Part shown: piece after piece, positions 44 through 17,909 of the stretch | Layout: each line of letters opens with the position of its first letter | Position numbering within the stretch: position 1 is the first letter of the stretch | DNA from: Enterococcus phage vB_EfaP_2/Chl-5 | Sequence record: PV455607.1 | DNA length: 18,099 bases | Reading direction: 5' to 3' (one strand) | Notes under the pieces: model-generated | Seen by the model: only the letters and a program-made list of their open reading frames with translations | Databases searched by the model: none | Told to the model about the DNA's origin: nothing | Translations under genes and position numbers: made by a program

Positions 44-72
44 TTTACAAATATGTGATTATATGGTAAACT
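44..72 (+). promoter_or_regulatory. Candidate sigma-A early promoter: TTTACA (44-49), 17-bp spacer, extended -10 TGgTAAACT (64-72)
   Basis: Read directly. It has the same TTTACA-17-TGnTAxAxT architecture as the promoters at 956 and 4576. The -10 is only 4/6 but carries an extended TG. It lies about 30 bp upstream of the RBS of the first gene. Confidence 0.35.
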
Positions 73-101
73 ATATTTGTAAGGTAAAGGAGGTGAATAA
101 A

Positions 102-392
102 ATGAAACTTACAGATGCTACAAATTATATGTCAGAACTATCATCAAACTTAGAAACAATTGATAATTTAATTAAAGATCTTAATTCTTCATACAATATG
201 AATGATCAAGTTCGTGTTTACTTGGAAAAAGATGATGTCGCTCTCGATTATTGGTCAAAATCAAAATCTTTTAATGTTTCGTTTGAAAAAGAAATCATAA
301 TTTCAGCTTTAAAAGATCAAAGAAAAGTATTATACACAGAATTAATAAAGACGAAAGAATTTATCTCAGAACTATTGGAGGAAAAACAATGA
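102..392 (+). CDS. Small early protein, paralog A of a tandem triplet (97 aa from ATG 102; the track ORF begins at ATG 63 without an RBS)
   Basis: The RBS AAAGGAGG (87-94) sits 8 nt before ATG 102. The stop overlaps the next start (ATGA at 389-392). It shares length, MK-start, central D(P/Q)xxR(I/V) motif and I(I/S)ExLEE C-terminus with the next two ORFs. Confidence 0.7.
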   Translation: MKLTDATNYMSELSSNLETIDNLIKDLNSSYNMNDQVRVYLEKDDVALDYWSKSKSFNVSFEKEIIISALKDQRKVLYTELIKTKEFISELLEEKQ

Positions 393-670
393 AAACAAGT
401 TATAAACAATTAGATGAACTAATTTCATTAAAAAATCGTATGAAACACAATAAAACACATCTTAAATACATTACCGAATGTATAGATGAAGTTAAAAAAT
501 CATCGGGCGATCCATACCGTATTAAAGTTTCGTACGACAATCATTATCTTACACTTGTTTCTATCACAAAAGAACAAGTAATAAATAATTTAGAAAAAGA
601 AAAGTTAAAATTAACAACAGCGATTTTAGAAATACAAGATGAAATTATAGAAATTTTGGAGGAGAAATAA
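389..670 (+). CDS. Small early protein, paralog B (93 aa), translationally coupled
   Basis: ATGA overlap with paralog A and TAATG overlap with paralog C. Sequence pattern MKxSxxQxDEL...GDPYRIKVSY...IIEILEEK is shared with neighbours. Confidence 0.7.
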   Translation: MKTSYKQLDELISLKNRMKHNKTHLKYITECIDEVKKSSGDPYRIKVSYDNHYLTLVSITKEQVINNLEKEKLKLTTAILEIQDEIIEILEEK

Positions 671-942
671 TGAAATACTCACTAGAACAAATAGATGAGA
701 TTAGATCAACAATTCTCAGAATTAAATTAAAAAGGGATGAACTGGAGGAACTGTTGGACGAATTAAACGATATTTCTAAAGATCCGGAAGAAAGATATGT
801 TTTATCGTTTTATTACACAAGAGAAGAACGTCTGTTTGAAATTCCGTCAGTAAGATTAATAGATTATTACAACACAAAGATCATAAATCTGAAATCGGAA
901 ATCATATCACTCGAAAAAAGATTACAAAAACTAGTAAAATAA
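670..942 (+). CDS. Small early protein, paralog C (90 aa)
   Basis: TAATG coupling to paralog B. MKYSLEQIDEI...KDPEERYVLSFYY...IISLEKRLQKL resembles B and A. Confidence 0.7.
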   Translation: MKYSLEQIDEIRSTILRIKLKRDELEELLDELNDISKDPEERYVLSFYYTREERLFEIPSVRLIDYYNTKIINLKSEIISLEKRLQKLVK

Positions 943-955
943 TTACACAAAAAGC

Positions 956-984
956 TTTACAAATATAGCACATCATGTTATACT
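956..984 (+). promoter_or_regulatory. Early promoter: TTTACA (956-961), 17-bp spacer, TGtTATACT extended -10 (976-984)
   Basis: Read directly. It lies in the 120-bp gap before the p6-like gene. A 7-bp inverted repeat AGTAAGG/CCTTACT (about 991-1017) lies in the predicted 5' UTR. Confidence 0.55.
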
Positions 985-1063
985 AAAAGAGTAGTAAGGG
1001 AACGGAAAATACCTTACTTCACACCTCAATCATTCTTATCAAAATACAAAAGGAGGAAAAAGA

Positions 1064-1330
1064 ATGGCTCGAAAACTAATGCAACGAAACGTGACATCAA
1101 CTAAAGCGGAATTCTCAGAAGTTATCGTACAAGACGGAGCGCCAACAATTGTACCATGCGAACCAGTTGTACTAACAGGAAAACTTTCAGAAGAAAAAGC
1201 TTTATCAGCGATCAAACGTAAAAACCCTGATAAAAACGTAGTAGTAACAAATGTTTCACATGAAACAGCGCTTTACACAATGCCAGTCGATAAATTTATC
1301 GAGTTAGCAGACAAATCAACACAAGCCTAA
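1064..1330 (+). CDS. gp6: phi29 p6-like histone-like dsDNA-binding / replication-origin protein
   Basis: Strong RBS AAAGGAGG then ATG. MARKLMQRNVTSTK...KRKNPDKNVVVTNV...LYTMPVDKFIELA parallels phi29 p6 as recalled (MAKMMQREITKTT...KRKYKGNDVTVVSV...YELPVEKFLEVA). Size is 88 aa. Confidence 0.75.
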   Translation: MARKLMQRNVTSTKAEFSEVIVQDGAPTIVPCEPVVLTGKLSEEKALSAIKRKNPDKNVVVTNVSHETALYTMPVDKFIELADKSTQA

Positions 1331-1368
1331 TAAAACAAAACTAAAACAAAACAGAGGAGATTATAATC

Positions 1369-1740
1369 ATGGAAATCGTAAAAAGCACATTTGACACACA
1401 AACACCAGAAGGAATGTTACAAGTATTCAATGCCACAAACGGGGCTTCAATTCCGTTACGTAACGCAATTGGCGAAGTACTAGAATTGAAAGACATTCTA
1501 GTTTACTCAGACGAAGTTTCTGGTTTTGGTGGAGCCGAACCATCACAAGCAGAGCTAGTCGCTTTCTTCACAGAAGATGGTAAAACTTATGCTGGTGTAT
1601 CAGCGGTAGCAACAAAGTCAGCTAAAAACCTAATTGATATGATGAGTGCTAACCCTAACATCAAACCAAAAATTTCTTTTGTTGAAGGAAAATCAAACGG
1701 TGGACAAAAATTTGTAAATCTACAAGTGGTTTCACTGTAG
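1369..1740 (+). CDS. gp5: phi29 p5-like single-stranded DNA-binding protein
   Basis: VKSTFDTQTPEGMLQVFNA and the C-terminal KFVNLQVVSL match the recalled phi29 p5 (VKATFDTETLEGQIKIFNA ... FFSLQLSL). It is 123 aa, against 124 aa in phi29. RBS is AGAGGAG. Confidence 0.8.
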   Translation: MEIVKSTFDTQTPEGMLQVFNATNGASIPLRNAIGEVLELKDILVYSDEVSGFGGAEPSQAELVAFFTEDGKTYAGVSAVATKSAKNLIDMMSANPNIKPKISFVEGKSNGGQKFVNLQVVSL

Positions 1741-1765
1741 CATAAAAATACAGGAATCTAGTAAG

Positions 1766-1795
1766 CCACTTAGCGAATCTCGCTAGGTGGTTTTT
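1766..1795 (+). terminator. Rho-independent terminator between SSB and TP genes (11-bp stem CCACTTAGCGA/TCGCTAGGTGG with one G-U, 3-nt loop, T5)
   Basis: Read directly: stem 1766-1776 / 1780-1790 followed by TTTTT 1791-1795. Confidence 0.6.
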
Positions 1796-1824
1796 ATTAT
1801 GTTTCTACATTGAGGTGTGTAGAA

Positions 1825-2670
1825 TTGACAGTAAGAATATCAAAGAACGATAGAGCGAAGTTAGAGAAAATCTATGGAAAGTCTAACAAAGCTCGTAAAA
1901 AGTACAACCGTTTAAGACAAAAAGGAGTTGAGGAAAGGCAACTACCAACTGTTCCAACATCAAAGAAAAGACTTATTGACTACGTAAAATCAACAAATAT
2001 GAGTCGTAGTGATTTTAACAAGTTGTTAGATGAGTTGGTAGACTTTGCACAGCCTTACAACGAGAATTACATTTTTGAGATCAACAAGCGAAATGTTGCT
2101 ATCTCAAGAGCGCAAATCAAAGAAGCGCAAATTAAAACAGAGCAAGCTCAAAAAGCAAAAGAAGAACACTACAAAGAGCTTAACGAACTTCAGATTAAGA
2201 AGCCAACAGAAAACACAATTGTCACACCAACGATTTTAACAGAGTTAGGTGCGGACTTACCTTTTCAAGCAATACCAGATTTTAACATTGATTCTTTTAC
2301 TTCTCCAGAAGGAGTTCAGTCTTATTTAGAAAATATAGGAAAACAAGACGAACAATATTTTGATGAAAGGGATCAGCTTTATTATGACAATTTCAGACAA
2401 GCGATGTTTACTATTTTCAATTCAGACGCTGACGACATTGTTCGTTTACTTGATTCCATGGGGCTTGACCTATTTATGAAAACCTATGTTACCAACTTCT
2501 TGGACATGAACCTTGACTACATTTATGATGAAGCAGAAGTACAACAGAAAAAAGAACAAGTTTACAGTAAGATTGCAAAAGTGATCGAATCTGAAACAGG
2601 TGGAGAAGTCCCCTCATATAACCCCACGAAGAACATCACAATTAATTCAGAAACAGGAGAAGAATTATGA
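1825..2670 (+). CDS. gp3: Terminal protein (primer for protein-primed replication); start probably TTG 1825 after RBS GAGGTG (track start TTG 1810)
   Basis: VRISKNDRAKLEKIYGKSNKARKKYNRLRQKG parallels the phi29 TP N-terminus (IRIKDNDKAEYARLVKNTKAKIARTKKKYG, recalled). It is about 281 aa, against 266 aa in phi29. Its stop overlaps the polymerase start (ATGA). There is no in-frame ATG near the 5' end, so a non-ATG start is inferred. Confidence 0.8.
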   Translation: MTVRISKNDRAKLEKIYGKSNKARKKYNRLRQKGVEERQLPTVPTSKKRLIDYVKSTNMSRSDFNKLLDELVDFAQPYNENYIFEINKRNVAISRAQIKEAQIKTEQAQKAKEEHYKELNELQIKKPTENTIVTPTILTELGADLPFQAIPDFNIDSFTSPEGVQSYLENIGKQDEQYFDERDQLYYDNFRQAMFTIFNSDADDIVRLLDSMGLDLFMKTYVTNFLDMNLDYIYDEAEVQQKKEQVYSKIAKVIESETGGEVPSYNPTKNITINSETGEEL

Positions 2671-4388
2671 TTAAGAAATATACAGGCGACTTTGAAACAA
2701 CAACTGATCTCAACGATTGTCGTGTATGGTCGTGGGGCGTATGCGATATAGACAATGTTGACAATATAACATTCGGTTTAGACATTGATTCTTTTTTTGA
2801 ATGGTGCGAAATGCAAGGTAGTACAGATATCTATTTCCACAACGAAAAATTTGATGGAGAGTTTATGCTTTCATGGTTATTCAAAAATGGTTTCAAATGG
2901 AGCAAAGAAACGAAAGAAGAAAGAACATTCTCTACATTGATATCAAATATGGGTCAATGGTATGCTTTGGAAATTTGTTGGGAAGTTAATTACACAACAA
3001 CAAAATCAGGTAAAACGAAAAAAGAGAAAGTTCGAACGATCATCTATGATAGTCTTAAGAAATACCCATTTCCAGTCAAACAAATTGCAGAAGCTTTTAA
3101 TTTTCCTATAAAAAAAGGCGAAATAGATTATACAAAAGAAAGACCTATTGGTTACAAACCGACAAAAGATGAGTGGGAGTATTTAAAGAACGACATTCAG
3201 ATTATGGCAATGGCATTAAAAATTCAATTCGATCAAGGACTAACTCGAATGACTAGAGGAAGTGACGCTTTAGGCGATTACCAAGATTGGGTAAAGACCA
3301 CATATGGTAAATCAAGATTTAAACAATGGTTTCCTATTTTGTCTTTAGGGTTTGATAAAGACTTACGTAAAGCATACAAAGGCGGCTTCACTTGGGTAAA
3401 CAAAGTTTTTCAAGGGAAAGAAATAGGCGATGGCATTGTCTTTGATGTTAACTCTTTGTATCCCTCTCAAATGTATGTAAGACCTTTACCATATGGAACA
3501 CCTCTATTCTATGAGGGAGAATACAAACCGAACAACGACTATCCACTTTACATTCAAAATATCAAAGTAAGGTTTCGTTTAAAGGAGGGTTATATTCCAA
3601 CCATTCAAGTTAAGCAAAGCTCATTATTTATTCAAAACGAATATCTTGATTCGAGCGTAAACAAACTTGGAGTCGATGAATTAATTGATCTTACACTTAC
3701 AAACGTTGATCTTGAGTTGTTCTTTGAACATTACGACATTTTAGAGATACATTACACGTATGGTTATATGTTCAAAGCTTCTTGTGATATGTTCAAAGGC
3801 TGGATCGATAAATGGATCGAAGTAAAGAACACCACTGAAGGAGCTAGAAAAGCGAATGCTAAAGGTATGTTAAATAGCTTGTATGGAAAGTTCGGAACAA
3901 ACCCTGACATTACAGGAAAAGTGCCTTACATGGGCGAGGACGGCATTGTTCGATTGACACTAGGAGAAGAAGAATTAAGAGATCCTGTTTATGTTCCGCT
4001 TGCTAGTTTTGTGACGGCTTGGGGTAGATATACTACCATTACAACCGCTCAAAAATGTTTTGATCGCATTATTTATTGTGATACAGATAGCATTCATCTA
4101 GTAGGAACAGAAGTTCCAGAAGCAATCGATCACTTGGTTGATCCTAAAAAACTTGGTTATTGGGGACATGAAAGCACATTTCAACGAGCAAAATTTATTC
4201 GTCAGAAAACATATGTCGAAGAAATTGACGGAGAATTAAATGTAAAGTGTGCTGGTATGCCAGATCGAATAAAAGAGCTTGTAACCTTTGACAATTTTGA
4301 AGTTGGTTTTTCAAGCTATGGAAAGTTGCTACCGAAAAGAACACAAGGTGGCGTGGTATTAGTAGACACAATGTTTACAATCAAATAA
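2667..4388 (+). CDS. gp2: Protein-primed family-B DNA polymerase (phi29 p2-like)
   Basis: Exo I DFETTT, Exo II HNEKFDGEFM and Exo III YLKNDIQI are present. So are motif A DVNSLYPSQMY, motif B KGMLNSLYGKFG, motif C YCDTDS and KxY RQKTYVEE. At 573 aa it compares with 575 aa in phi29. Confidence 0.95.
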   Translation: MIKKYTGDFETTTDLNDCRVWSWGVCDIDNVDNITFGLDIDSFFEWCEMQGSTDIYFHNEKFDGEFMLSWLFKNGFKWSKETKEERTFSTLISNMGQWYALEICWEVNYTTTKSGKTKKEKVRTIIYDSLKKYPFPVKQIAEAFNFPIKKGEIDYTKERPIGYKPTKDEWEYLKNDIQIMAMALKIQFDQGLTRMTRGSDALGDYQDWVKTTYGKSRFKQWFPILSLGFDKDLRKAYKGGFTWVNKVFQGKEIGDGIVFDVNSLYPSQMYVRPLPYGTPLFYEGEYKPNNDYPLYIQNIKVRFRLKEGYIPTIQVKQSSLFIQNEYLDSSVNKLGVDELIDLTLTNVDLELFFEHYDILEIHYTYGYMFKASCDMFKGWIDKWIEVKNTTEGARKANAKGMLNSLYGKFGTNPDITGKVPYMGEDGIVRLTLGEEELRDPVYVPLASFVTAWGRYTTITTAQKCFDRIIYCDTDSIHLVGTEVPEAIDHLVDPKKLGYWGHESTFQRAKFIRQKTYVEEIDGELNVKCAGMPDRIKELVTFDNFEVGFSSYGKLLPKRTQGGVVLVDTMFTIK

Positions 4389-4400
4389 GGAGGACTAATA

Positions 4401-4571
4401 ATGGATTTATATAAAGCAATATTTATTGTACGTGATGAAGGAACGATTGACGGTTACGCTACCGAACACTTTGTTGATATTTCTTTACACGACTTTGAAG
4501 AAATCTATGGAAAAGAAACACGTGAAATTGAAGCAGTAACATTAGTAAAAACAGGAAATTTCAAAAAATAA
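4401..4571 (+). CDS. 56-aa acidic ORF missed by the ORF track; possible phi29 p56-like uracil-DNA-glycosylase inhibitor (DNA mimic)
   Basis: Strong RBS AAGGAGG (4389-4395) 5 nt before ATG 4401; stop TAA 4569-4571. Translation MDLYKAIFIVRDEGTIDGYATEHFVDISLHDFEEIYGKETREIEAVTLVKTGNFKK has net charge about -5. ISLHDFEEIYGKETREIE resembles the LSLSDFEVLYGNTADEII segment of phi29 p56 as I recall it. It is the same length (56 aa) and sits in the same genomic position, after the polymerase and before the pRNA. Confidence 0.55.
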   Translation: MDLYKAIFIVRDEGTIDGYATEHFVDISLHDFEEIYGKETREIEAVTLVKTGNFKK

Positions 4572-4575
4572 ATTA

Positions 4576-4604
4576 TTTACATCCTTTGCAAAGTATGGTA
4601 AAAT
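4576..4604 (+). promoter_or_regulatory. Promoter TTTACA (4576-4581), 17-bp spacer, extended -10 TGgTAAAAT (4596-4604) driving a short non-coding transcript
   Basis: Read directly. No ORF follows. A strong terminator lies about 160 nt downstream. Confidence 0.55.
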
Positions 4605-4610
4605 ATTCTT

Positions 4611-4767
4611 GTGATAGTTGACAAGAGTCAAATTTGGCGAGATTGGGCGAATGTACACGTGAAATATCGTGCGCTCCCGTTAAGTTATGGACACATAAAC
4701 GTTTTGACCGTCAACCAATCGCAAAAACCTTTTAGGAGTAGCCCTTAAATGTGGCTACTCTTTTTTT
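4611..4767 (+). ncRNA. Candidate packaging RNA (pRNA-like), about 155 nt from predicted TSS to terminator
   Basis: It is a promoter-to-terminator unit without coding capacity at the position adjacent to gene 2 / p56 where phi29 encodes pRNA. Internal hairpins are TTGAC-AAGA-GTCAA (4618-4632), GTTTT...AAAAC (4701-4728) and the terminator stem. Its 5' GTTGAC/GATTGG segments are complementary to its 3' GTCAACCAATC. Confidence 0.45.
4736..4767 (+). terminator. Rho-independent terminator (stem GAGTAGCC 4736-4743 / GGCTACTC 4753-4760, 9-nt loop, T7 4761-4767)
   Basis: Read directly: perfect 8-bp GC-containing stem followed by seven T residues. Confidence 0.75.
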
Positions 4768-4783
4768 GTGTTTCACAGAATTA

Positions 4784-4799
4784 TGTTTCACGTGAAACA
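4784..4799. promoter_or_regulatory. parS: Perfect 16-bp palindrome TGTTTCACGTGAAACA matching the bacterial parS (ParB/Spo0J) consensus tGTTNCACGTGAAACa
   Basis: Read directly. A GTTTCAC half-site lies at 4770-4776. ACACGTGAAAT occurs at 4518-4528 and 4655-4665. The palindrome overlaps the -35 position of the late promoter. Confidence 0.6.
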
Positions 4800-4815
4800 G
4801 TTTTTATGGTATAAT
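4787..4815 (+). promoter_or_regulatory. Late promoter: extended -10 TGgTATAAT (4807-4815) with a poor -35 (TTCACG)
   Basis: Read directly. It lies 24 nt upstream of the scaffold-gene start and heads the whole late operon. Confidence 0.6.
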
Positions 4816-4838
4816 AGAATCAAAAGGAGGTGGAGATT

Positions 4839-5129
4839 ATGGAAATTAAAGAACATGAAGCAATTCTAAATGGTATTCTTGAAAGTGTCACAGACGGTGA
4901 AGCAAGATCAAAGATTGTAGAACATCTTGAAGCATTGCGAGAAGACTACGGAGCAACAACTGAAGCTTTGACATCAGCAAATAGCACACTTGAGAAGTTA
5001 AAGAAAGATAACGAAGCGTTGGTGATTTCAAACTCAAAATTGTTCCGAGAACGAGCGAGCGTAGAACAACCAGAAAATAACGAACCAGAAACAGACCAGA
5101 ATATTACACTAGATGATCTAGGAATTTAA
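4839..5129 (+). CDS. gp7: Head scaffolding protein (phi29 gp7-like); start ATG 4839 (track GTG 4830 lies inside the RBS)
   Basis: AGGAGG 4825-4830 then an 8-nt spacer to ATG. VISNSKLFRE matches phi29 gp7 IVSNSKLFRQ (recalled). It is about 96 aa, acidic and coiled-coil-like. Confidence 0.8.
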   Translation: MEIKEHEAILNGILESVTDGEARSKIVEHLEALREDYGATTEALTSANSTLEKLKKDNEALVISNSKLFRERASVEQPENNEPETDQNITLDDLGI

Positions 5130-5142
5130 GGAGGAAACAAAC

Positions 5143-6471
5143 ATGGCAGATAAAATCACAGAACAAGATGTTCTTAACGCCACAAATGTAGAAACACCAG
5201 TACAATTAATGACTGCTATTTATAATAGCTCATCATCTCTTTTTCAAGCGAACGTACCTATGCCAAATGCAGATAACATTCAAGCGGTTGGTGCTGGGAT
5301 CACACGTTTAGATGTAGTAAAAAATGAATTTATTTCAACTTTAGTTGATCGTATTGGTAAAGTAGTTATTCAATACAAATCATGGCGAAACCCTTTGAAA
5401 ATGTTTAAAAAAGGAAACATGCCTTTAGGTCGAACGATCGAAGAAATTTTTGTTGACATTGCACAGGAACATAAATTCAATCCTGAAGAATCTGTTACAG
5501 GTGTATTTAAACAGGAAGTTCCCGATGTAAAAACATTGTTTCACGAAATTAATCGTGAAGGTTACTACAAACAAACGATCCAAGAAGCATGGTTAGAAAA
5601 AGCATTTACTTCATGGGATAATTTCAATAGTTTCGTTGCTGGTGTAATGAATGCTTTATACACAGGCGATGAAGTAAGTGAATTTGAATACACGAAATTG
5701 TTAATAGCAAACTACCAAGAAAAAGAGTTATTCAAAGAGATCGAAATTGGCGAAATTAATGAATCAAATGCAAAAAATTTTATTCGTAAGATCAAAGCAA
5801 CATCAAACAAACTTGAATTTATGAACAATTCTTACAATGCACAAGGTGTAAGAACATCAACAGCTAAAGCCGACCAATACGTTATTATTGACGCTGACAC
5901 TGACGCTACAATTGACGTTGACGTTTTAGCAGCGGCATTCAATATGAGTAAAACTGACTTTGTAGGACACAAAATCGTTATTGATGAGTTTCCTAAAAAA
6001 GAAGGCGAAGATTCGTCAAATATTGTGGCAGTTATTGTAGATAGTGAGTGGTTTATGATCTATGACAAATTGTACAAAACAACAAGTCTATACAACCCTG
6101 AAGGCTTATATTGGAATTATTGGTTGCACCACCACCAACTATATTCTACTTCTCAATTCGGGAACGCCGTTGCTTTTGTTAAATCAGCAACAAAACCTGT
6201 CACAAAAGTTGCTTTTGCAAGTGCAACAGCTACTGTTGTTAAAGGTTCATCTAAAGATATCGCATTGACATTTACACCAGCAGAAGCAACAAACCAAGAA
6301 GGAGAAGTAGTTTCATCAGCACCAACATTGGTTAAGGCAACCGTAAAACAAACAGCAGGTAAAGCGACTGGCGTAACCGTAGAAGGCTTAGAAGTCGGTC
6401 AATCATTAGTAACATTCACAGCTATCGGAGGTCAACAAGCAACGGTTCTTGTTACGGTTACTTCTGACTAA
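5143..6471 (+). CDS. gp8: Major capsid protein (phi29 gp8-like) with C-terminal Ig-like Big_2 domain
   Basis: [15 protein letters not shown]...[21 protein letters not shown] parallels phi29 gp8 (FITSLVDRIGLVVIR...[21 protein letters not shown]). The C-terminal 80 aa are rich in T/V/A beta-strand residues, typical of Big_2. It is 442 aa, against 448 aa in phi29. Confidence 0.95.
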   Translation: [442 protein letters not shown]

Positions 6472-6482
6472 GGAGGACAATT

Positions 6483-8297
6483 ATGGCAAGACGGTATACA
6501 CATGTAAAATTGTTGACTAACGTGCCTTTTGATAACACTTATGCACACACAAGATGGTGTAAAACTCAACAGGAACAGGAATCGTACTTTAATTCGTTTC
6601 CTGTTCTAAACGAGAATACTGATTGTTCTTATCAAAGAGATACACAACTCGGTGGAGTTTTTAGAGTAGATAAACACAAAGACGCTTTATATGCTTGTAA
6701 CTATCTCATCTTTAAAAACGAAGAAACTTATCCTAGTAAATGGCAGTATGCCTTTGTTACAGATATTGAATATAAGAACGACAACACAAGTTTCGTTACT
6801 TTTGAAATTGATGTTTTACAAACTTATCGCTTTGATATTGGTATACGAGAAAGTTTCATTGCAAAAGAACATCCTCAACTTTATTATTCGAACGGAATAC
6901 CTTTCATTAATACAATTGAAGAGTCGCTTGATTACGGTAGAGAATACACAACAACAAATGTAACAACTTTTCATCCTAACGATGGAGTCAATTTTCTTGT
7001 TATTCTAACAAGTGAAGCAATGCCAGTGGGAGATAAGGAAGATAAATCAGGAGGATCAATTGTCGGAGGGCCATCACCTTATTCCTATTATTTACTTCCT
7101 CTCAATTCAAGTGGCGAGGTATACAAACCAAATGGTGCAGGTAATGCTAACTTTGGAGAGTACATGGCGTTTCTTACAACGAAAGAACCTTTTTTAAATA
7201 AGATAGTCGGGATGTATATAACGTCATATACAGGTATACCATTTATTGTGGATCATGCTAACAAAACAGTAAGGTATAATGCAGGAGGTTCGTATAAGAT
7301 TACACTCCCAACCTATGCCAGTGATCCAACAGGAACAATGAAAACATTCGCTTTCTTTTGTGTGAAAGAGGCAAGAACATTTGTACCTAAAAGAATTGAT
7401 CTTGTAGGAAATGTGTATAACTACTTTAGAGAAAGTTTTCCATTTAATGTTAAGGAATCTAAACTATTTATGTATCCTTATTGTTTACTAGAAATTACAG
7501 ATACTAAAGGACATGTTATGACTATCAGACCCGAATATCTTACAGGTGGTAAATTGAGTGTATACGTAAAAGGTTCGTTAGGCATTTCTAATAAAGTCAT
7601 GATTGAACCAATTGATTATGATGTAACTAACTCAAGCATTATTACTAATTTAAGTGACAAGATGTTAATCGATAATGACCCTAACGATGTAGGAGTTAAA
7701 TCTGACTACGCTGCTGCATTTATGCAAGGAAATAAAAACTCCTTGATTGCTCAAGAACAAAACATACGAAATACCTTTAGGCACGGTATGGGAAACAGTG
7801 CAATGAGTACAGGTGGAGCAATCTTTTCTGCATTGGCCAGTGTCAATCCATTTGTTGGTTTGACTAACATTATGGGAGCAGGACAACAAGTAAACAACTA
7901 TGTTGCAGAAAAAGAAAACGGATTGAATCTCTTAGCAGGCAAAGTGGCAGATATTGAAAATATCCCAGATAATGTCACACAGCTAGGATCAAACTTATCT
8001 TTCACAATGGGAAACTTTCAAAATTATTATCAATTGCGATTCAAACAAATTAAATATGAGTATGCTACAAGACTGAATCGTTACTTCTCAATGTATGGCA
8101 CAAAGAGCAATCGAGTAGCTACACCAAACTTACAAACAAGAAAATCATGGAATTTCATTAAATTAAAAGAGCCAAATATTGTAGGTACAATGAGTAACGA
8201 TGTGTTAACGCGAGTGAAACAAATTTTTAGTGCAGGAGTTACCCTTTGGCATACGAACGATATTTTAAATTATAACCAAGACAACGGAGATGTGTAG
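6483..8297 (+). CDS. gp9: Tail knob / distal tail protein (phi29 gp9-like)
   Basis: HVKLLTNVPFDNTYAHTRW parallels the recalled phi29 gp9 N-terminus (VRILADVPFSNDYKNTRWF). It is 604 aa, against 599 aa in phi29. RBS is AGGAGG. Confidence 0.85.
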   Translation: MARRYTHVKLLTNVPFDNTYAHTRWCKTQQEQESYFNSFPVLNENTDCSYQRDTQLGGVFRVDKHKDALYACNYLIFKNEETYPSKWQYAFVTDIEYKNDNTSFVTFEIDVLQTYRFDIGIRESFIAKEHPQLYYSNGIPFINTIEESLDYGREYTTTNVTTFHPNDGVNFLVILTSEAMPVGDKEDKSGGSIVGGPSPYSYYLLPLNSSGEVYKPNGAGNANFGEYMAFLTTKEPFLNKIVGMYITSYTGIPFIVDHANKTVRYNAGGSYKITLPTYASDPTGTMKTFAFFCVKEARTFVPKRIDLVGNVYNYFRESFPFNVKESKLFMYPYCLLEITDTKGHVMTIRPEYLTGGKLSVYVKGSLGISNKVMIEPIDYDVTNSSIITNLSDKMLIDNDPNDVGVKSDYAAAFMQGNKNSLIAQEQNIRNTFRHGMGNSAMSTGGAIFSALASVNPFVGLTNIMGAGQQVNNYVAEKENGLNLLAGKVADIENIPDNVTQLGSNLSFTMGNFQNYYQLRFKQIKYEYATRLNRYFSMYGTKSNRVATPNLQTRKSWNFIKLKEPNIVGTMSNDVLTRVKQIFSAGVTLWHTNDILNYNQDNGDV

Positions 8298-8311
8298 GAA
8301 GGAGGAATAAG

Positions 8312-9292
8312 ATGAGTAGACGAAAAGGTGCAGGACTTGCTAGAAATAACCGTTATACAGCAAAAAGCAGACCTTATCCAAACGAACCCTATTCAAGTGA
8401 TGTAGAAGAAATCAGCTACTATGAACATTATCGTAGACAACTCACGCTCCTTACGTTTCAGTTGTTTGAATGGGAAAATTTACCGAAATCAATTGACCCT
8501 CGATATTTAGAAATTGCATTACACACAAATGGTTATCTCGGTTTCTTTAAAGATCCTACACTAGGGTTCATGGTTTGTGCAGGAGCAGAAGATGGCCAAA
8601 TCGATCATTATCACAATCCTATTTTCTTTACAGCAAATGAAGCAATGTATCACAAGAGATATCCTGTTTTAAGATATGATGATGATGATGACAAATCAAA
8701 ATGTATCATGTTGTATAACAATGATTTGAAAGTTCCTACACTACCGAGTCTTCATCGGTTTGCTTTGGATATGGCAGACATAAACCAGATATCACGAGTG
8801 AATCGAAGAGCGCAAAAAACACCTGTAATTATTCAAACTGATGAAAAGAAATACTTCTCATTGCTACAAGCTTATAACCAAATTGACGAAAATAATCAGG
8901 CTGTTTTTGTGGATAAAGATATGGAGTTTGACAAAGCTTTTAATGTGTGGCAAACAAATGCACCTTATGTAGTGGATAAACTAAGATCAGAATTGAACGA
9001 AGTATGGAATGAAGTCTTAACTTTTCTAGGTATCAACAATGCCAACGTAGATAAGACTGCACGTGTACAAACATCAGAAGTCTTATCTAACAACGAACAG
9101 ATTGAAAGCTCAGGAAACATCTTGTTAAAATCAAGAAAAGAGTTTTGTGATCGTGTAAATCGTGTCTTTGGCGATGAACTTGACGGAAAGATTGACGTGA
9201 AGTTTAGAACGGACGCGGTGCGACAATTACAACTAGCAGCAGGTCAATCAAAAAAAGACCAAATGAGTGGAGGGTTGCCAAGTGCTACTTAA
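8312..9292 (+). CDS. gp10: Head-tail connector / upper collar (portal, phi29 gp10-like)
   Basis: [21 protein letters not shown] parallels phi29 gp10 ([21 protein letters not shown]). Also [23 protein letters not shown] and FLGI.NAN match gp10. It is 326 aa. Confidence 0.92.
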   Translation: [326 protein letters not shown]

Positions 9293-10118
9293 ACGTTATA
9301 TTGAAAGTTTCACTTATTACCAACCTGAATTATCTCGAAAAGAACGTATTGAAGTTGGCAGAAAACAATTGTTTGATTTTGATTATCCATTTTATGACGA
9401 AACAAAACGAGCAGAATTTGAAACAAAATTTATCAATCACTTTTACTTGAGAGAGATAGGATCAGAAACGATGGGATCATTTAAGTTTAATCTTGACGAG
9501 TATTTAAATCTAAATATGCCCTATTGGAATAAGATGTTCCTATCAAATCTTGAAGAGTTTCCGATTTTTGATGATATGGACTATACCATTGATGAGAAAC
9601 AGAAATTGTTAAATGAGATTGATACAAACATCAAAGCGAATCGGGATGAGTCAAAAAATCAAACGAAACAAGTAGATCAAACAGACAACAGAAACAAAAA
9701 TACCCGTGACACAGGAACAACCGATTCTTTCTCAAGAAACACGTATACAGACACTCCTCAAAAAGATTTGAGAATTGCTAGTAATGGCGACGGAACAGGT
9801 GTCATCAATTATGCAACAAATATCACAGAAGATTTGAGTAAAGAAACAACAAGTTCTACAGGCGTTGAAACAAACAACGACAAAACAAATCAAAACACAC
9901 GAAGCAATGCTTCTGAAAAAGAAACAAAGAACACAGACATTAATAAAGATCAAAATCAAACCAAAGATACGATTACACGATATAAAGGTAAAAAGGGAAA
10001 CACTGATTATGCTGACTTACTCGAAAAATATCGCAAAAGTGTTTTGAGAATTGAGAAAATGATCTTTAGAGAAATGAACAAGGAAGGCTTATTTCTCCTT
10101 GTTTATGGAGGGAGGTAA
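9282..10118 (+). CDS. gp11: Lower collar protein (phi29 gp11-like) with a long polar low-complexity insertion; start probably GTG 9282 after GGAGGG (track GTG 9267)
   Basis: The position after the connector and the 279-aa size (293 aa in phi29) fit gp11. It overlaps the gp10 3' end. Residues about 125-245 are a T/N/K/D/Q-rich, apparently disordered segment. Confidence 0.7.
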   Translation: MLLKRYIESFTYYQPELSRKERIEVGRKQLFDFDYPFYDETKRAEFETKFINHFYLREIGSETMGSFKFNLDEYLNLNMPYWNKMFLSNLEEFPIFDDMDYTIDEKQKLLNEIDTNIKANRDESKNQTKQVDQTDNRNKNTRDTGTTDSFSRNTYTDTPQKDLRIASNGDGTGVINYATNITEDLSKETTSSTGVETNNDKTNQNTRSNASEKETKNTDINKDQNQTKDTITRYKGKKGNTDYADLLEKYRKSVLRIEKMIFREMNKEGLFLLVYGGR

Positions 10119-10123
10119 CAGCA

Positions 10124-10675
10124 ATGGTAGATTTTAACCCCGACAAGCGGTTTGACGGTTTACCCTCAGTATTCAAAGAACGTTTTAGTAAATATCCTCA
10201 TACGGAGTACAGATACGAATTACTATTAGATGAAGAAGTATCGGCTTTAATTGCCTATCTGAATGAGATTGGCGCTTTAGTTAATGATATGAGTGGTTAT
10301 TTAAATTACTTTATCGAACATTTTGTAGAGAAGTTAGAAGAGATCACAACTGACACACTCAAAAAATGGTTATCTGACGGTACACTAGAAAGTTTAATCA
10401 ACGATACTGTGTTTGCTAATTATATCAAAGAAATCAAAAGACTACAAATCTTGGTTGCTGAAACACGTGCTAACAGTGTGAATATTCTTTTGACAAAAAA
10501 TAAACCCGATGTTGCTGATGATCGAACATTTTGGTTTAAAATACAACGTGATAATACCGATTATGGGAATGATCCTATTGATACGTTACGTATTGTTGCA
10601 ATCAATAAAGTTAGTGGCTGGAATACCGCTACAGGAGATATTTATCTTAACATTAAAGGAACGGAGGGTGTATAA
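10124..10675 (+). CDS. Hypothetical structural protein (183 aa), no phi29 counterpart recognised
   Basis: RBS GGAGGGAGG and tight packing in the late operon; TAATG coupling to the next gene. Confidence 0.6.
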   Translation: MVDFNPDKRFDGLPSVFKERFSKYPHTEYRYELLLDEEVSALIAYLNEIGALVNDMSGYLNYFIEHFVEKLEEITTDTLKKWLSDGTLESLINDTVFANYIKEIKRLQILVAETRANSVNILLTKNKPDVADDRTFWFKIQRDNTDYGNDPIDTLRIVAINKVSGWNTATGDIYLNIKGTEGV

Positions 10676-10971
10676 TGGCAGACATTAGAACACAACTAAC
10701 AAGCGAAGATGGATCAGACAATTTATTTCCAATTTCAAAAGCCGTTAATATTATGACTAATAGCGGCAAGAATGTAGAAGGAGAATTGGGTACACTCAAA
10801 CAAAATAACGAAACAATGAATACGTCAGTTCAAAATGCGGTAGTTAATGCCAATCAAGCAAAAGATTCTGTAGCTGAATTAAATGTGAATGTTGGTAAAC
10901 TAACCAATCGAATAACAACATTAGAGAGTACAGTCGATAGTATTGACGGTATTCGTTATGTAGAGGTGTAA
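10675..10971 (+). CDS. Fibre-like protein 1 (98 aa) with conserved N-terminal module and coiled-coil tail
   Basis: N-terminus MADIRTQLTSEDGSDNLFPISKAVNIM is shared with the next two genes. C-terminal heptad-like NAVVNANQAKDSVAELNVNVGKLTNRITTLE. Confidence 0.65.
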   Translation: MADIRTQLTSEDGSDNLFPISKAVNIMTNSGKNVEGELGTLKQNNETMNTSVQNAVVNANQAKDSVAELNVNVGKLTNRITTLESTVDSIDGIRYVEV

Positions 10972-10972
10972 T

Positions 10973-11377
10973 ATGGCAGATAAAAATATTCAACTGAAGG
11001 ATAAAGATCAAAATCGTTTAATGCCTGTAACCATTGCTAAAAATGTTCTAACAGGCGACTCTAATCTTGAATTAGTTAATGCTGAAATAAGAGGTAACGC
11101 TAGTGAAGCTAAAACCCTTGCACAACAAGCTAAAGAAACTGCTGATGGATTGTCAACAGAAATTGAAACAGCAACTTCAACCGCAAATCAAGCGTTGACG
11201 AAAGCTGGTACAGCACAACAAACCGCAGAACAAGCGAAAACAGCAGCGAACAGTGTCAGTTCAGTTGCAACGACAGCTAAAAACACAGCTGATTCAGCAA
11301 AACAAACTGCAACTGATCTTGCTGTTCGAGTAAGCAGTTTAGAGAACACAGCAATACAATATACTGTATTACCGTAG
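10973..11377 (+). CDS. Fibre-like protein 2 (134 aa), A/T/Q-rich fibrous segment
   Basis: N-terminus MADKNIQLKDKDQNRLMPVTIAKNVL. Low-complexity AKTLAQQAKETADGLSTEIETATSTANQALTKAGTAQQTAEQAKTAANS repeat-like shaft. Confidence 0.65.
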   Translation: MADKNIQLKDKDQNRLMPVTIAKNVLTGDSNLELVNAEIRGNASEAKTLAQQAKETADGLSTEIETATSTANQALTKAGTAQQTAEQAKTAANSVSSVATTAKNTADSAKQTATDLAVRVSSLENTAIQYTVLP

Positions 11378-11388
11378 GAGGAAAAATA

Positions 11389-11811
11389 ATGGCAAATAAA
11401 AATATTCAAATGAAGGATAGCAATGACAATAATTTATATCCAATTGTTCGAGCAGAAAACTTGTTAGATTTAACTAGTCGTGCTGAATTGACAATGACAA
11501 ATTGTCAATTATATAACGCTAGTGATAAAACAAATGCAATCTCTTATCTCGGCGCAGTAGGTATGATCGAAGGTATGGTAAAGTTTACTGAAAGTTTAAC
11601 AAATCCAGTGATTACAACATTACCAGAAGGTTTTAGACCGATAAGAACAAAGCGTATTGGTTGTTTCGCAAAATACTACACACCAAATCCAGCAAATACA
11701 AAAGAAATGATTTATGTATCAATCACACCTGATGGTAGAGTAACCGTAAATGACAATGTAGGTAAAATCGAATATCTATCATTAGATAATTGTGTTTTCC
11801 CTCTAAAATAA
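11389..11811 (+). CDS. Fibre-like protein 3 (140 aa), globular C-terminal domain
   Basis: N-terminus MANKNIQMKDSNDNNLYPIVRAENLL. Its first 30 nt are nearly identical to the first 30 nt of the gene at 10973. Confidence 0.65.
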   Translation: MANKNIQMKDSNDNNLYPIVRAENLLDLTSRAELTMTNCQLYNASDKTNAISYLGAVGMIEGMVKFTESLTNPVITTLPEGFRPIRTKRIGCFAKYYTPNPANTKEMIYVSITPDGRVTVNDNVGKIEYLSLDNCVFPLK

Positions 11812-11821
11812 GGAGGTTCCT

Positions 11822-13156
11822 ATGGAAGAACGAATTGATATTCAAATGAACAAAATGAAAGAAGAAAATCAAAAGAATTACCTATTGCACCCTGAAACGA
11901 ACCCGACACAGGTTGTTTTTGATGAAACATTACATGGAAATAAAAATCAAGAGAGTTTCAACGAATTTGTTGACAAAAGAAAAATGACAACTACAATCGA
12001 TGTAAGTGCTTATGGCGTTATTGCAGATGGTGTAACAGATTGTACACCAATCTTAAATAAACTACTCGAAGAAAAAAGCGAAATGGGTATCACTTTTTAT
12101 TTTCCTCCTTGTGAACGTGATTCATATTATCGCTTTGCTAACACAATTGAATTAAAGCGTGATGTTCCAGTAGTGACTTTCTTAGGATCAGGAGAAACAA
12201 CATTAAAGTTTGAAACAATGACGGCATTTAATGTAAACATTGAAAGCTTCAATATTGATGGGTTTGCATTATGGTTGCCACAAGGCGCTCAAAGCGGTAA
12301 AGGAATTTTCTTTAATGATACTCGAAATTACAACCGTTTTGACTTTGATTTGTTTGTTCGCAACTGTACTTTAAATGAAGGAACATATGTTGTTGTTGCT
12401 AGAGGTAGAGGGGTTACCTTTAAAAATTGTCTATTCTCTAATATCTCTCAAGCAATCATCAAAACAGCTTTTCCAGATGTAAACAGTATGTGGCAAGGGA
12501 ACGATATTAATACTAGGGGTACAGGTTTTAGAGGTTTCTTTGTGAAAAACAACCGTATTCACTTTTGTACAGCGATCATTATCGACAATGAGGATGATTA
12601 TCAGAATGTCATTAATTTCTGTGAAATTTCTGGTAACACAATCGAAGGTGGCGTAAGTTATTATCGAGGATATGCACATAACTTGCATGTCCAAAACAAC
12701 AACCATTTTCTAGCATACGGAAATAGAAACGCTTTGTTTGAGTTTCAAGATGTGGATCAAGCTTATATTGATGTAGATGTTTATTCTCGTAACTCGAAAG
12801 TAGAGGGAATGAATAGTACAGCTATTTCACGTTTAGTTGTTGTTTACGGACATTACCGAAACTTAAGGATTACAGGAAAGTTATATCGTTGTCAAGGAAA
12901 TGTTATCACTTTATATGGTGGTGGCGTTAATTTCTATTGTGATCTAATGGCACAAGAAGCGCCTTTGACAGACGGATATCGGTTTATTCAAACAGCGGAC
13001 AAACGAGTCAACTATGACGGTTTTGTTGTTCGTGGACTGTCTAATTCAACAAAAGTAAATACACCAATGATCTATAAAGCACCTCAGACTGTTTTCTATA
13101 ATCGTAAAATCGATCATGTGCTAACAGGTCCAAATGCAAGTAATGTATATAACTAG
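11822..13156 (+). CDS. gp12: Pre-neck appendage / tailspike with pectate-lyase-type right-handed beta-helix (phi29 gp12 position, half its size)
   Basis: VSAYGVIADGVTDCTPILNKLL matches the YGAKGDGVTDDT signature of Pectate_lyase_3-type tailspikes. Repetitive N/G/V beta-helix-like composition. The position before the gp13-like gene fits. Confidence 0.7.
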   Translation: MEERIDIQMNKMKEENQKNYLLHPETNPTQVVFDETLHGNKNQESFNEFVDKRKMTTTIDVSAYGVIADGVTDCTPILNKLLEEKSEMGITFYFPPCERDSYYRFANTIELKRDVPVVTFLGSGETTLKFETMTAFNVNIESFNIDGFALWLPQGAQSGKGIFFNDTRNYNRFDFDLFVRNCTLNEGTYVVVARGRGVTFKNCLFSNISQAIIKTAFPDVNSMWQGNDINTRGTGFRGFFVKNNRIHFCTAIIIDNEDDYQNVINFCEISGNTIEGGVSYYRGYAHNLHVQNNNHFLAYGNRNALFEFQDVDQAYIDVDVYSRNSKVEGMNSTAISRLVVVYGHYRNLRITGKLYRCQGNVITLYGGGVNFYCDLMAQEAPLTDGYRFIQTADKRVNYDGFVVRGLSNSTKVNTPMIYKAPQTVFYNRKIDHVLTGPNASNVYN

Positions 13157-13167
13157 GAGGATATGAG

Positions 13168-14205: not shown

Positions 14206-14220
14206 TAAGGAGAAAAAGGT

Positions 14221-15488: not shown

Positions 15489-15499
15489 GAGTGTATAGT

Positions 15500-16531: not shown

Positions 16532-16533
16532 CC

Positions 16534-16707
16534 CTATTTTAGTAGAGTTACCACGATTAGCTCTATGACAATGATGAATAGTAGGTAGCATATTGATTGT
16601 AGTCTGCGATAGTTATGTTTTGGTTCTTTGGCGCTAGTGATTTTTGCTAACGCCTTTTTGTTTGCTTTTGGATCTGGTGTGTTAATGTAGACGAAGTCTT
16701 TTCTCAT
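16534..16707 (-). CDS. Small right-early protein (57 aa) with C-terminal transmembrane helix; start ATG 16707 (track start 16806 would overlap the upstream gene by 100 nt)
   Basis: RBS AAGGAG sits 9 nt upstream of ATG 16707-16705. ATGA overlap with the stop of the gene at 16704. C-terminus ICYLLFIIVIELIVVTLL is hydrophobic. Confidence 0.55.
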   Translation of the reverse strand: MRKDFVYINTPDPKANKKALAKITSAKEPKHNYRRLQSICYLLFIIVIELIVVTLLK

Positions 16708-17015: not shown

Positions 17016-17016
17016 T

Positions 17017-17310: not shown

Positions 17311-17313
17311 GTA

Positions 17314-17616: not shown

Positions 17617-17619
17617 ATG

Positions 17620-17880: not shown

Positions 17881-17909
17881 GTTTATCATCCTTTCTTTAT
17901 TACATCTAT

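Follow-up and report, generated by a model that had tools for sequence, protein, structure and literature searches.

A divergent p56-family protein in a phi29-like Enterococcus faecium phage, a probable DNA-mimic inhibitor of the host uracil-DNA glycosylase

Phages phi29 and PZA of Bacillus encode the small acidic protein p56 (gene 56, also termed 1B or gp0.8; Pfam PF20763; PDB 2LE2, 3ZOQ, 4L5N), a DNA mimic that blocks the uracil-removing repair enzyme of the host. The protein is the product of an early gene, has a beta-beta-alpha-beta topology and requires the homodimer for inhibition. Mutagenesis and crystal structures have shown that E26, D35, F36, E37 and Y40 matter, and that the helix forms a hydrophobic pocket at the dimer interface, which captures the residue that the uracil-DNA glycosylase Ung intercalates into the minor groove (PMC3711442, PMC3239192). 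The mutant E26A loses 87% of inhibition (PMC3239192), and a D45R mutant retains partial activity (PMC3711442). Inhibitors of this kind can be described by the PROSITE-style pattern E-x(2)-Y-x(0,2)-G (PMC10303552), in which E37 and Y40 serve dimerization and the hydrophobic pocket. Also conserved among the validated p56 inhibitors is an N-terminal motif, F-x-D-S-Y; inhibition is said not to depend on it (PMC10303552). So far, p56-type Ung inhibitors have been characterized only in Bacillus phages (phi29, PZA, GA-1, VMY22).

Several relatives and functional analogs frame the comparison. The VMY22-type p56 (VMY22, Harambe, BeachBum; PDB 8AIL) is a validated inhibitor, which demonstrates that p56 can be functional at ~24% identity and where the K49/R51/D53 triad is missing; proteins of this type swap the helix phenylalanine for cysteine, a change offset by a tryptophan in beta3. 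The p56-fold homologs of Bacillus phages DK2, DK3 and Goe4, in turn, were shown not to inhibit Ung and have lost the motif tyrosine (PMC10303552). Ugi of PBS1/PBS2 and SAUGI of the Staphylococcus SCCmec would be expected to share the mode of action proposed below, as acidic mimics that plug the Ung cleft and sequester its leucine or phenylalanine (PMC3711442, PMC10303552); unlike the p56 family, they are monomeric inhibitors with unrelated folds, and the motif they employ is E-S-I on a beta-strand.

The locus considered here lies in an 18,099-nucleotide stretch of Enterococcus phage vB_EfaP_2/Chl-5 (PV455607.1), hereafter the window, which represents an almost complete Salasmaviridae phage of Enterococcus faecium and matches phage CUB-FM at 95.7% and phage Athos at 91%. 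The termini are probably incomplete, given that the two ends of the window show no terminal inverted repeat of more than 1 nt. At positions 4401-4571 of the plus strand an ORF starts with ATG and encodes 56 amino acids followed by TAA (stop codon included in the coordinates), with the translation MDLYKAIFIVRDEGTIDGYATEHFVDISLHDFEEIYGKETREIEAVTLVKTGNFKK. The original prediction, made from the letters of the window, had singled out this ORF as acidic and preceded by a near-perfect ribosome-binding site, and both descriptions are accurate: the product contains 12 acidic and 7 basic residues (pI 4.77, net charge -5; phi29 p56: 12 acidic and 5 basic residues, pI 4.17, net charge -7), and direct reading of the plus strand places AAGGAGG at 4387-4393, with 7 nt between its last G and the ATG. 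The ORF had further been called unannotated. This is true of the ORF track that accompanied the window, but Athos (ATHO_8) and CUB-FM (CUBFM_8) carry the same gene as an annotated CDS for a "hypothetical protein". Neither the ORF nor phi29 p56 is matched by any NCBIfam model, which fits the "hypothetical" label of both genes in the public records examined, and the papers on Athos and CUB-FM make no mention of uracil, p56 or pRNA.

Short ORFs are frequent at a G+C content of only 34%, as in this window, and one as short as 4401-4571 might be a chance, untranslated frame in an AT-rich intergenic stretch. The strength and ideal spacing of the ribosome-binding site speak against such an accident, as does the reading frame itself, which stays open in every relative down to 50% identity; pairwise dN/dS values against diverged relatives are ~0.1-0.25. 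The significant profile homology to a characterized protein family and the confident fold prediction described below point the same way. We conclude that this is a real gene, subject to purifying selection, and its reading as a chance ORF, to which we give next to no probability, is effectively refuted by the dN/dS values together with the hhalign and Bacillus-only profile results. Two overlapping ORFs, 4426-4539 on the plus and 4542-4658 on the minus strand, were also considered as genes and rejected, as the substitution pattern suits the 4401 frame. A promoter-like match at 4374-4402, which overlaps the ribosome-binding site and the start codon, is regarded as a chance AT-rich match.

Searched as a single sequence, the ORF finds p56 and nothing else, at modest scores. 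Its sole Pfam match is PF20763 (UDG-inhib_P56; profile positions 8-53 of 53, E = 0.013), at 15.7 bits, which misses the gathering threshold of 24.1 bits; a PDB search matched only p56 chains (2le2/3zoq, E = 0.54; 4l5n_C, E = 0.68). The only PHROG match is phrog_13823 (E = 0.001), which is the p56 family, being matched by the p56 proteins of phi29, Nf and Harambe at 1e-31 to 1e-34. In a word-indexed database, single-sequence searches retrieved only relatives of at least 79% identity for the ORF and at least 91% for phi29 p56, leaving the two groups unlinked, and an exhaustive search of representatives combined with profile searches was needed to connect them. Three bridging sequences exceed the Pfam cut-off, namely P0016 (26.3 bits), P0029 (31.2 bits) and P0027 (30.5 bits), and they share 60% (phmmer E = 1.9e-14), 64% and 57% identity, respectively, with the ORF product.

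At the level of profiles the relationship is clear. The family of the ORF aligns to the Bacillus p56 family with an hhalign probability of 95.8% (E = 7e-9, 46 columns), and its profile matches p56 chains only in the PDB (E = 1e-4; next match 0.65). Conversely, when the window was divided into its 357 six-frame stop-to-stop segments, a p56 profile built from Bacillus phages only matched the 4401-4571 ORF alone (E = 5e-6, 20.9 bits; next best 2.8 bits). Judged from sequence profiles and the modeled fold, the 4401-4571 protein belongs, as a divergent member, to the family of phi29 p56 (PF20763, PHROG 13823), and homology is established. The likeness to phi29 p56 noted in the original prediction therefore holds, and the profile search whose failure to find p56 had been named as grounds for abandoning the idea was run and came out the opposite way. 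The segment ISLHDFEEIYGKETREIE cited at that time corresponds to residues 27-44 of the ORF product, and the phi29 stretch named with it, LSLSDFEVLYGNTADEII, is correct and covers p56 residues 31-48; 9 of the 18 positions are identical. The parallel drawn from a length of exactly 56 residues, correct for the ORF itself, is coincidental: the alignment begins only at p56 residue 7-8, and the ORF product carries 2-3 inserted residues in the first hairpin and extends further at the C-terminus.

Outside the Athos-like phages, the nearest relatives form an uncultured clade within PF20763, known from metagenomic phi29-like contigs (e.g., P0016, P0027, P0029, P0035, P0038; 43-64% identity) and marked by the signature Y-G-N-E-T-R-E-I-E. 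The clade and the ORF product share the core S-L-[HS]-D-F-E-x-I-Y-G-[NK]-E-T-R-E-I-E and an arginine at the position of p56 D45, and the genes follow the polymerase gene where context is available. Most proteins of the clade carry V and N at the V38 and N42 positions, as phi29 does, and lie above the Pfam cut-off, whereas E34 and K38 take these places in the Athos-like proteins.

All five critical residues of p56 are present in the ORF product, E26, D35, F36, E37 and Y40 as E22, D31, F32, E33 and Y36. By alignment, the codon of E22 lies at 4464-4466 on the plus strand, and the helix motif D31-F32-E33-E34-I35-Y36-G37 (4491-4511, plus strand) corresponds to D35-F36-E37-V38-L39-Y40-G41, so that the D-F-E-x-x-Y-G motif of phi29/PZA p56 is shared and the family pattern recurs as E33-E-I-Y36-G37. 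The VMY22-type proteins share E-x-x-Y-G; unlike them, the ORF product keeps the phi29-type pocket phenylalanine (F36 of p56, here F32) and has no beta3 tryptophan. Across 90 family sequences, E33 and Y36 occur in every one, E22 in 88, and F32 and D31 in 87 each. The hydrophobic dimer core is likewise kept, p56 L33, I47, L50 and L52 being represented by L29, I43, V46 and L48, the last three in beta3.

Other features set the ORF product apart from phi29/PZA p56, to which it is ~30% identical and from whose Bacillus host its own, E. faecium, differs. It lacks the six-residue N-terminal tail, and because of this F-x-D-S-Y is reduced to D-L-Y in the start M-D-L-Y, in which D and Y are all that remains of the motif, the phenylalanine being absent; the insertion noted above falls in the beta1-beta2 hairpin, and the longer C-terminus is basic. 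Several interface or dimer positions are altered (S34 to H30, V38 to E34, N42 to K38, D45 to R41, and K49/R51/D53 to A45/T47/V49), the last of these changes leaving the protein without the salt-bridge triad. Among the acidic DNA-mimic positions that mutagenesis identified in p56 (E26, D35, the D18-D20 loop and D45), the first two are kept as stated above, D12/E13/D17 stand for the D18-D20 loop of p56, and R41 is flanked by E39 and E42. Arginine is the majority state at the D45 position (65 of the 90 family sequences), and the ten members of the set that were scanned all lie above the PF20763 cut-off. Across the family, E-x-x-Y and the glutamate equivalent to E26 are invariant or nearly so, whereas its members can dispense with D45 and the N-terminal motif.

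A p56-type fold is also predicted by AlphaFold2, which yields a model with a pLDDT of 93.1, a value to be read with the caveat that p56 structures may have been part of the training data. The model consists of three antiparallel strands (beta1, residues 2-11; beta2, 19-27; beta3, 43-53) with a helix (29-38) between beta2 and beta3. In a Foldseek search of the PDB, the top 10 matches are all p56 chains of PZA, phi29 and VMY22 (TMq 0.74-0.80, rmsd 1.8-2.9 A; next TM 0.36), the VMY22 type (8AIL) at TMq 0.75-0.76, and the best structural matches in BFVD are the p56 proteins of Nf, Karezi, BeachBum and Harambe. Neither Ugi nor SAUGI chains appear among the sequence or structure matches of the ORF (PDB searches, Foldseek).

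We consider it probable, at roughly three chances in four, that the 4401-4571 protein is a p56-family dimeric DNA mimic that inhibits the host Ung. By comparison with p56, beta-beta-alpha-beta monomers would pair through beta3 and the helix, and the two antiparallel helices would offer an acidic, DNA-like surface together with a hydrophobic pocket made of F32, E33 and Y36 of both subunits. The pocket would capture the loop residue, Leu or Phe, that the family-1 uracil-DNA glycosylase of the host (Ung) intercalates into the minor groove, and the acidic residues E22, D31 and D12/E13/D17 would fill the DNA-binding groove of the enzyme, leading to a stoichiometric block. Single-stranded intermediates of protein-primed replication would thereby be spared uracil excision and strand breakage. 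Dimerization, binding to the Ung of E. faecium and the biological role are all inferred by analogy. A literature search on ung in E. faecium found nothing usable; the survey "Life without dUTPase" lists Enterococcaceae among the families with dut- ung+ genomes, its table naming strains of E. faecalis, not E. faecium.

The Northropvirinae homologs (DK1, DK2, DK3, vB_BthP-Goe4), whose predicted fold is the same as that of the ORF product (PMC10303552), suggest a different outcome, in which the protein, much like those of DK2, DK3 and Goe4, does not inhibit Ung, having lost or never had this activity, and would serve another early function. Such inactive homologs are documented (PMC10303552), the proteins of DK1, DK2 and MG-B1 are among the structural neighbors of our model, and the ORF product shares neither F-x-D-S-Y nor D45 with p56. 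We nevertheless regard this alternative as unlikely, since the inactive homologs are far longer, have exchanged the tyrosine for isoleucine and occur in phages with a dUTPase (PMC10303552), whereas the ORF product retains E33-x-x-Y36-G37 and F32 in a chain of 56 residues, in a genome where no dUTPase was detected: none of the 20 ORFs scanned matched a Pfam dUTPase or UDG model, the other large ORFs being those of the polymerase and of structural proteins of head and tail. Identity amounts to 30-35% with the active p56 proteins versus only 14-17% with those of DK1 and DK2. The prevalence of arginine at the D45 position among family members, the passing of the Pfam cut-off by the ten scanned and the residual activity of the D45R mutant also count against this alternative.

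The changed Ung-contact positions (H30, E34, K38, R41) and the clade's own strongly conserved signature Y-G-[KN]-E-T-R-E-I-E, which the p56 proteins of Bacillus phages lack, could also be taken to mean that the DNA mimic has been retargeted in Enterococcus to another host DNA-binding protein, such as a different glycosylase, a nuclease or a restriction or defense factor. We judge this very unlikely, considering that the pocket- and dimer-forming residues that recognize the intercalating residue of Ung are strictly conserved, that large changes of the interface are tolerated among validated p56 variants (that of VMY22 is only 23-24% identical to PZA p56, and its pocket phenylalanine is replaced) and that there is no positive evidence for another target. 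A broader version of the idea would see the Athos-like protein and the uncultured clade as a distinct p56-fold branch whose remodeled surface (H30, E34, K38 and R41 in the Athos-like protein, along with the missing N-terminal tail and beta-sheet triad) reflects a target changed or broadened beyond Ung; we hold this to be improbable too.

If the protein is indeed an Ung inhibitor, this would suggest that phi29-like phages in general, and not just those infecting Bacillus, need to guard intermediates of protein-primed replication from excision of uracil by the host. The gene does not represent a new mechanism; rather, a known family gains a member, and a p56-type gene in Enterococcus phages has apparently gone unreported. 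Athos and CUB-FM are virulent phages under development against vancomycin-resistant enterococci, and a testable function could then be assigned to their "hypothetical" gene 8. The ORF and its ~70 metagenomic relatives also widen the sequence space in which the requirements of p56 inhibitors can be defined. The ORF product would moreover provide a small Ung inhibitor of potential value for work with Gram-positive bacteria or for biotechnology.

The genomic surroundings of the gene resemble those of p56. Directly upstream, at 2667-4388 on the plus strand, lies the gene of a protein-primed B-family DNA polymerase (573 aa), which is preceded by genes for a terminal protein, a p5-like SSB and a p6-like protein, a replication set of the phi29 type. 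The ORF starts 12 nt past the polymerase stop codon (4386-4388), which its ribosome-binding site overlaps, implying co-transcription with the early replication operon, and no terminator-like site lies between the two genes. Expression as the last gene of this operon is the best explanation. Comparison of gene positions in phi29, Nf and Goe1 shows that placement after the protein-primed polymerase agrees with that of p56, and a p56-like gene follows the polymerase in six other contigs as well (L012, L013, L015-L018).

The stretch directly downstream, 4576-4767 on the plus strand, comprises a promoter, a small RNA (~155 nt) with predicted structure and a hairpin. The original prediction had proposed colinearity with phi29, and the order of polymerase, p56-like gene and small RNA does agree; in phi29, however, the interval also holds genes 1, 0.6 and 0.4, whereas here the ORF directly adjoins both the polymerase gene and the small RNA, and lies, like phi29 p56, upstream of the promoter of the (here putative) pRNA. 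The identification as pRNA was not borne out by family: no Rfam model matched (whole window at the gathering threshold; 4500-4900 at E up to 10), a null that covers the pRNA family if Rfam 15 holds one. The element is a probable pRNA gene, a label that rests on position, promoter, terminator and covariation, not on family membership. A promoter scan placed TTTACA and TGgTAAAAT, separated by a 17 nt spacer, at 4576-4604 on the plus strand, and a hairpin at 4736-4760, followed by a T-run at 4761-4767, forms the terminator on the same strand. The RNA, placed at 4611-4767, folds with an MFE of -46.9 kcal/mol (z = -3.45) and, across 8 sequences, shows compensatory changes at 28 of 50 consensus pairs.

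[quoted passage not shown] The gene comprises an ATG start, 56 codons and a TAA stop, and its translation reads MDLYKAIFIVRDEGTIDGYATEHFVDISLHDFEEIYGKETREIEAVTLVKTGNFKK. An AAGGAGG motif (4387-4393) overlaps the stop codon of the polymerase gene and ends 7 nt 5' of the ATG. The product carries 12 D/E and 7 K/R residues (pI 4.77), compared with 12 and 5 (pI 4.17) in phi29 p56 (gp0.8 in NC_011048, MVQNDFVDSYDVTMLLQDDDGKQYYEYHKGLSLSDFEVLYGNTADEIIKLRLDKVL). The position, the length of 56 aa, the acidic character and the good ribosome-binding site named by the original prediction are thereby borne out, and the phi29 p56 string quoted with it is correct according to NC_011048, with 9 identities between the two 18-residue segments. 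The description of the gene as unannotated does not hold, as it is already called in public records as ATHO_8 of phage Athos and CUBFM_8 of phage CUB-FM, each labelled 'hypothetical protein'.

The ORF is a real gene. Its frame is kept in relatives of 79-96% identity from metagenomic and isolate assemblies, several of them labelled Enterococcus faecium, and more distant relatives (P0016, 60% identical; P0018, 52%) emerged when 1.8 billion representatives were scanned exhaustively with phmmer. Among nine codon-aligned sequences, dN/dS (Nei-Gojobori) amounts to ~0.1-0.25 where dS is large enough for measurement; for the window, dS and dN are 0.76 and 0.10 against contig L016, and 1.16 and 0.13 against contig L017. 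Wherever a contig offers sufficient context, the homologue lies 3' of the polymerase gene, either adjoining it or with one small ORF intervening, and 5' of a non-coding interval of ~270-450 nt and the scaffold gene.

Searches with the single sequence suggest p56 homology at sub-threshold scores. In the PDB the only matches up to E = 10 are p56 of phi29 (2LE2/3ZOQ, E = 0.54) and of PZA (4L5N chain C, E = 0.68), both aligned nearly end to end. The sole Pfam match is PF20763 'UDG-inhib_P56' at 15.7 bits, below the cut-off of 24.1 bits, and the sole PHROG match is phrog_13823 (E = 0.001), which represents the p56 family and is matched by the p56 proteins of phi29 (4e-33), Nf (4e-34) and Harambe (5e-31). 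At the level of sequence profiles the evidence argues decisively for homology. An hhalign comparison between the alignment of the ORF's own family and an alignment of Bacillus-phage p56 proteins (phi29, PZA, B103, Nf, Goe1, Karezi, Harambe, BeachBum and Goe23) gave a probability of 95.8% (E = 7e-9, 46 columns), so that the profile search did detect the proposed resemblance to phi29 p56. The ORF-family profile against all PDB sequences found p56 at E = 1e-4, the next match being at 0.65, and, of the 357 six-frame segments that make up the window, the Bacillus-only p56 HMM matched the ORF and no other (E = 5e-6, 20.9 bits, against 2.8 bits for the second-best segment). The combined alignment, used as a search profile, yielded 86 proteins, many of them 43-64% identical to the ORF and above the Pfam cut-off (PF20763 scores of 31.2 bits for P0029, 30.5 for P0027, 26.3 for P0016, and 36-41 for P0031, P0035 and P0038). 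These relatives bridge the ORF and the Pfam cut-off, and the ORF therefore represents a divergent p56 member that falls below the curated threshold on its own. The profile search also uncovered an uncultured clade of sizeable extent with a characteristic Y-G-N-E-T-R-E-I-E signature.

P0020 (223 aa; contig L014, 1011-1682) carries a p56-like domain at its N-terminus that is 50% identical to the ORF, with the motif intact; the genes of its contig are small, none in the vicinity encodes a polymerase, and the protein is reminiscent of GA-1 and Karezi, where p56 also occurs within longer proteins. Karezi gp08 (2902-3294) is annotated as 'uracil DNA glycosylase', the very activity that p56 inhibits, yet carries a p56-like inhibitor domain, and the RefSeq record of B103 has no CDS annotated over the p56 gene (301-471).

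An AlphaFold2 model, built from an 11-sequence alignment of the ORF family with no templates, has a mean pLDDT of 93.1 (at least 90 at 50 of the 56 residues) and contains a helix (29-38) and three strands (2-11, 19-27 and 43-53), in agreement with the published p56 topology (PMC3239192). The ten best Foldseek matches in the PDB are all p56 chains, from PZA (4L5N), phi29 (2LE2, 3ZOQ) and VMY22 (8AIL), with query-normalised TM scores of 0.74-0.80 and rmsd values of 1.8-2.9 A; the eleventh match drops to 0.36. Among predicted viral structures the best matches are p56 of Nf, Karezi, BeachBum and Harambe, followed lower down by homologues from DK1, DK2 and MG-B1. Because p56 structures predate the training set of AlphaFold2, the model does not count as wholly independent evidence.

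The residues on which p56 function depends are largely recognizable in the ORF. According to mutagenesis and crystallography, paired helices of the p56 dimer grip Phe191, which protrudes from B. subtilis UDG and corresponds to Leu in other Ungs, within a pocket formed by F36, E37 and Y40 of both subunits, and E37-Y40 hydrogen bonds hold the dimer together; inhibition drops by 87% in E26A, by 96% in E37A and about five-fold in D35 and D45 mutants, Y40A abolishes dimerisation, and the D18-D20 loop contributes charge (PMC3711442, PMC3239192). The alignments place E26, D35, F36, E37, Y40 and the D18-D20 loop opposite E22, D31, F32, E33, Y36 and D12/E13 of the ORF. Across an alignment of 90 family sequences, no substitution occurs at E33 or Y36 (90/90), and Y4, E22 and L29 (88/90), D31, F32 and I43 (87/90), S28 (86/90) and G37 (84/90) are nearly invariant; the ORF has the consensus residue at all ten positions. 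The ORF also matches E-x(2)-Y-x(0,2)-G, a pattern with which p56 homologues have been mined elsewhere. Compared with phi29 p56, the ORF differs by the substitutions S34 to H30, V38 to E34, N42 to K38 and D45 to R41, by A45, T47 and V49 in place of the K49/R51/D53 salt-bridge triad, by a missing N-terminal tail with F-x-D-S-Y cut down to D-L-Y, and by an insertion of 2-3 residues in the first hairpin. In the wider family, R is the majority state at the D45 position (65/90) and H at the S34 position (37/90), and all ten members of this set that were scanned against Pfam exceed the cut-off. The triad is likewise missing from p56 of Harambe and BeachBum, which appear to be of the VMY22 type and have Cys in place of F36 and Trp in beta3, two features described for that validated inhibitor. 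The F-x-D-S-Y motif is reportedly dispensable for inhibition (PMC10303552).

By analogy with p56, the ORF product is likely to inhibit Ung: it would most likely form a homodimeric DNA mimic, which would block the DNA-binding groove of host Ung and sequester its intercalating loop residue. Possession of the fold does not guarantee this activity, as the p56-fold homologues of Bacillus phages DK2, DK3 and Goe4 show no Ung inhibition (Muselmani et al., PMC10303552). Those are long proteins with Ile in place of the motif Tyr, from phages that encode a dUTPase (PMC10303552), whereas the ORF has the invariant Y36 and a length of 56 aa, and neither dUTPase nor UDG was matched in Pfam among the 20 further window ORFs scanned; the large ORFs besides these encode the polymerase and structural proteins of head and tail. 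The phage encodes the full phi29-type set for protein-primed, strand-displacement replication, the single-stranded intermediates of which p56 is thought to protect. One survey counts Enterococcaceae among the families with dut- ung+ genomes; its table gives E. faecalis rather than E. faecium. Neither the family nor the fold nor the mechanism of p56 is new. No report of a p56-type inhibitor in Enterococcus phages was found in the searchable literature, uracil, p56 and pRNA go unmentioned in the papers on Athos and CUB-FM, and NCBIfam contains no model for the family; the new point, as far as this literature shows, is family membership in an Enterococcus phage. In our view the functional prediction is sound, and it extends a known system modestly rather than coming as a surprise.

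The 18,099 bases represent almost the whole genome of a phi29-like E. faecium podophage, with end-to-end alignments to Enterococcus phages CUB-FM (PV646496; 95.7% identity) and Athos (LR990834; Salasmaviridae; 91.2%). The CUB-FM alignment spans positions 44-18070 only. No inverted terminal repeat was detected between the window ends (1-80 against 18020-18099), and the true ends of the genome therefore probably lie outside the window. On the + strand, three small genes of unknown kind are followed by those for a histone-like protein resembling p6, an SSB of the phi29 type, the terminal protein and the B-family DNA polymerase (2667-4388), then by the p56-like ORF, a non-coding interval of 268 nt, the scaffold gene (4839-5129), and genes for capsid, tail, connector, lysis and the gp16 packaging ATPase. 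The proposed colinearity with phi29 holds in order and fails in detail. The phi29 order is gene 2 (polymerase), gene 1, gene 0.8 (p56), 0.6, 0.4, promoter A1 and pRNA, and Nf and Goe1 are similar, with pRNA annotated; here the p56-like gene stands immediately 3' of the polymerase gene, and the early operon and late genes are co-directional rather than divergent. No Pfam match was obtained for three coiled-coil-like small ORFs arranged in tandem at the left end (109, 93 and 90 aa; 63-942, +) or for a block of 4-5 small ORFs at the right end (16534-17919, -). The capsid is a single 442-aa ORF in the window (5143-6471, +); the Athos record instead shows two genes here, a 'head morphogenesis protein' (5146-5346) and a 'major capsid protein' (5421-6473), probably because its Ion Torrent assembly contains an erroneous frameshift.

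A small-RNA unit starts 5 nt past the ORF stop codon. A promoter scan identified a strong promoter (4576-4604, +; TTTACA, 17 nt spacer, TGgTAAAAT), and a structured RNA of ~155 nt lies within 4576-4767 (+; MFE -46.9 kcal/mol, z = -3.45), with a GC-rich hairpin (4736-4760) and T-run (4761-4767) as intrinsic terminator. Eight aligned homologous regions from related phages share a closing helix between the 5' and 3' ends and two internal hairpins, and 28 of the 50 consensus pairs show a compensatory double change. The RNA is most likely the packaging RNA; because Rfam has no family matching it, we call it 'pRNA-like', on indirect grounds only. CUBFM_9, a 45-aa 'hypothetical protein' annotated in CUB-FM over this RNA (window ORF 4611-4748), is probably a false CDS. 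Further 3', the promoter of the scaffold and late genes (4787-4815, +) is overlapped at its -35 box by a perfect 16-bp palindrome (4784-4799; halves TGTTTCAC and GTGAAACA), with an extra TGTTTCAC copy at 4769-4776. No p4 homologue was identified. Two more distant relatives, contigs L012 and L013, carry repeated TTCATATGAA palindromes at the equivalent position, and the late-promoter palindrome has the appearance of an operator for a regulator of late transcription that co-varies with the phage lineage.
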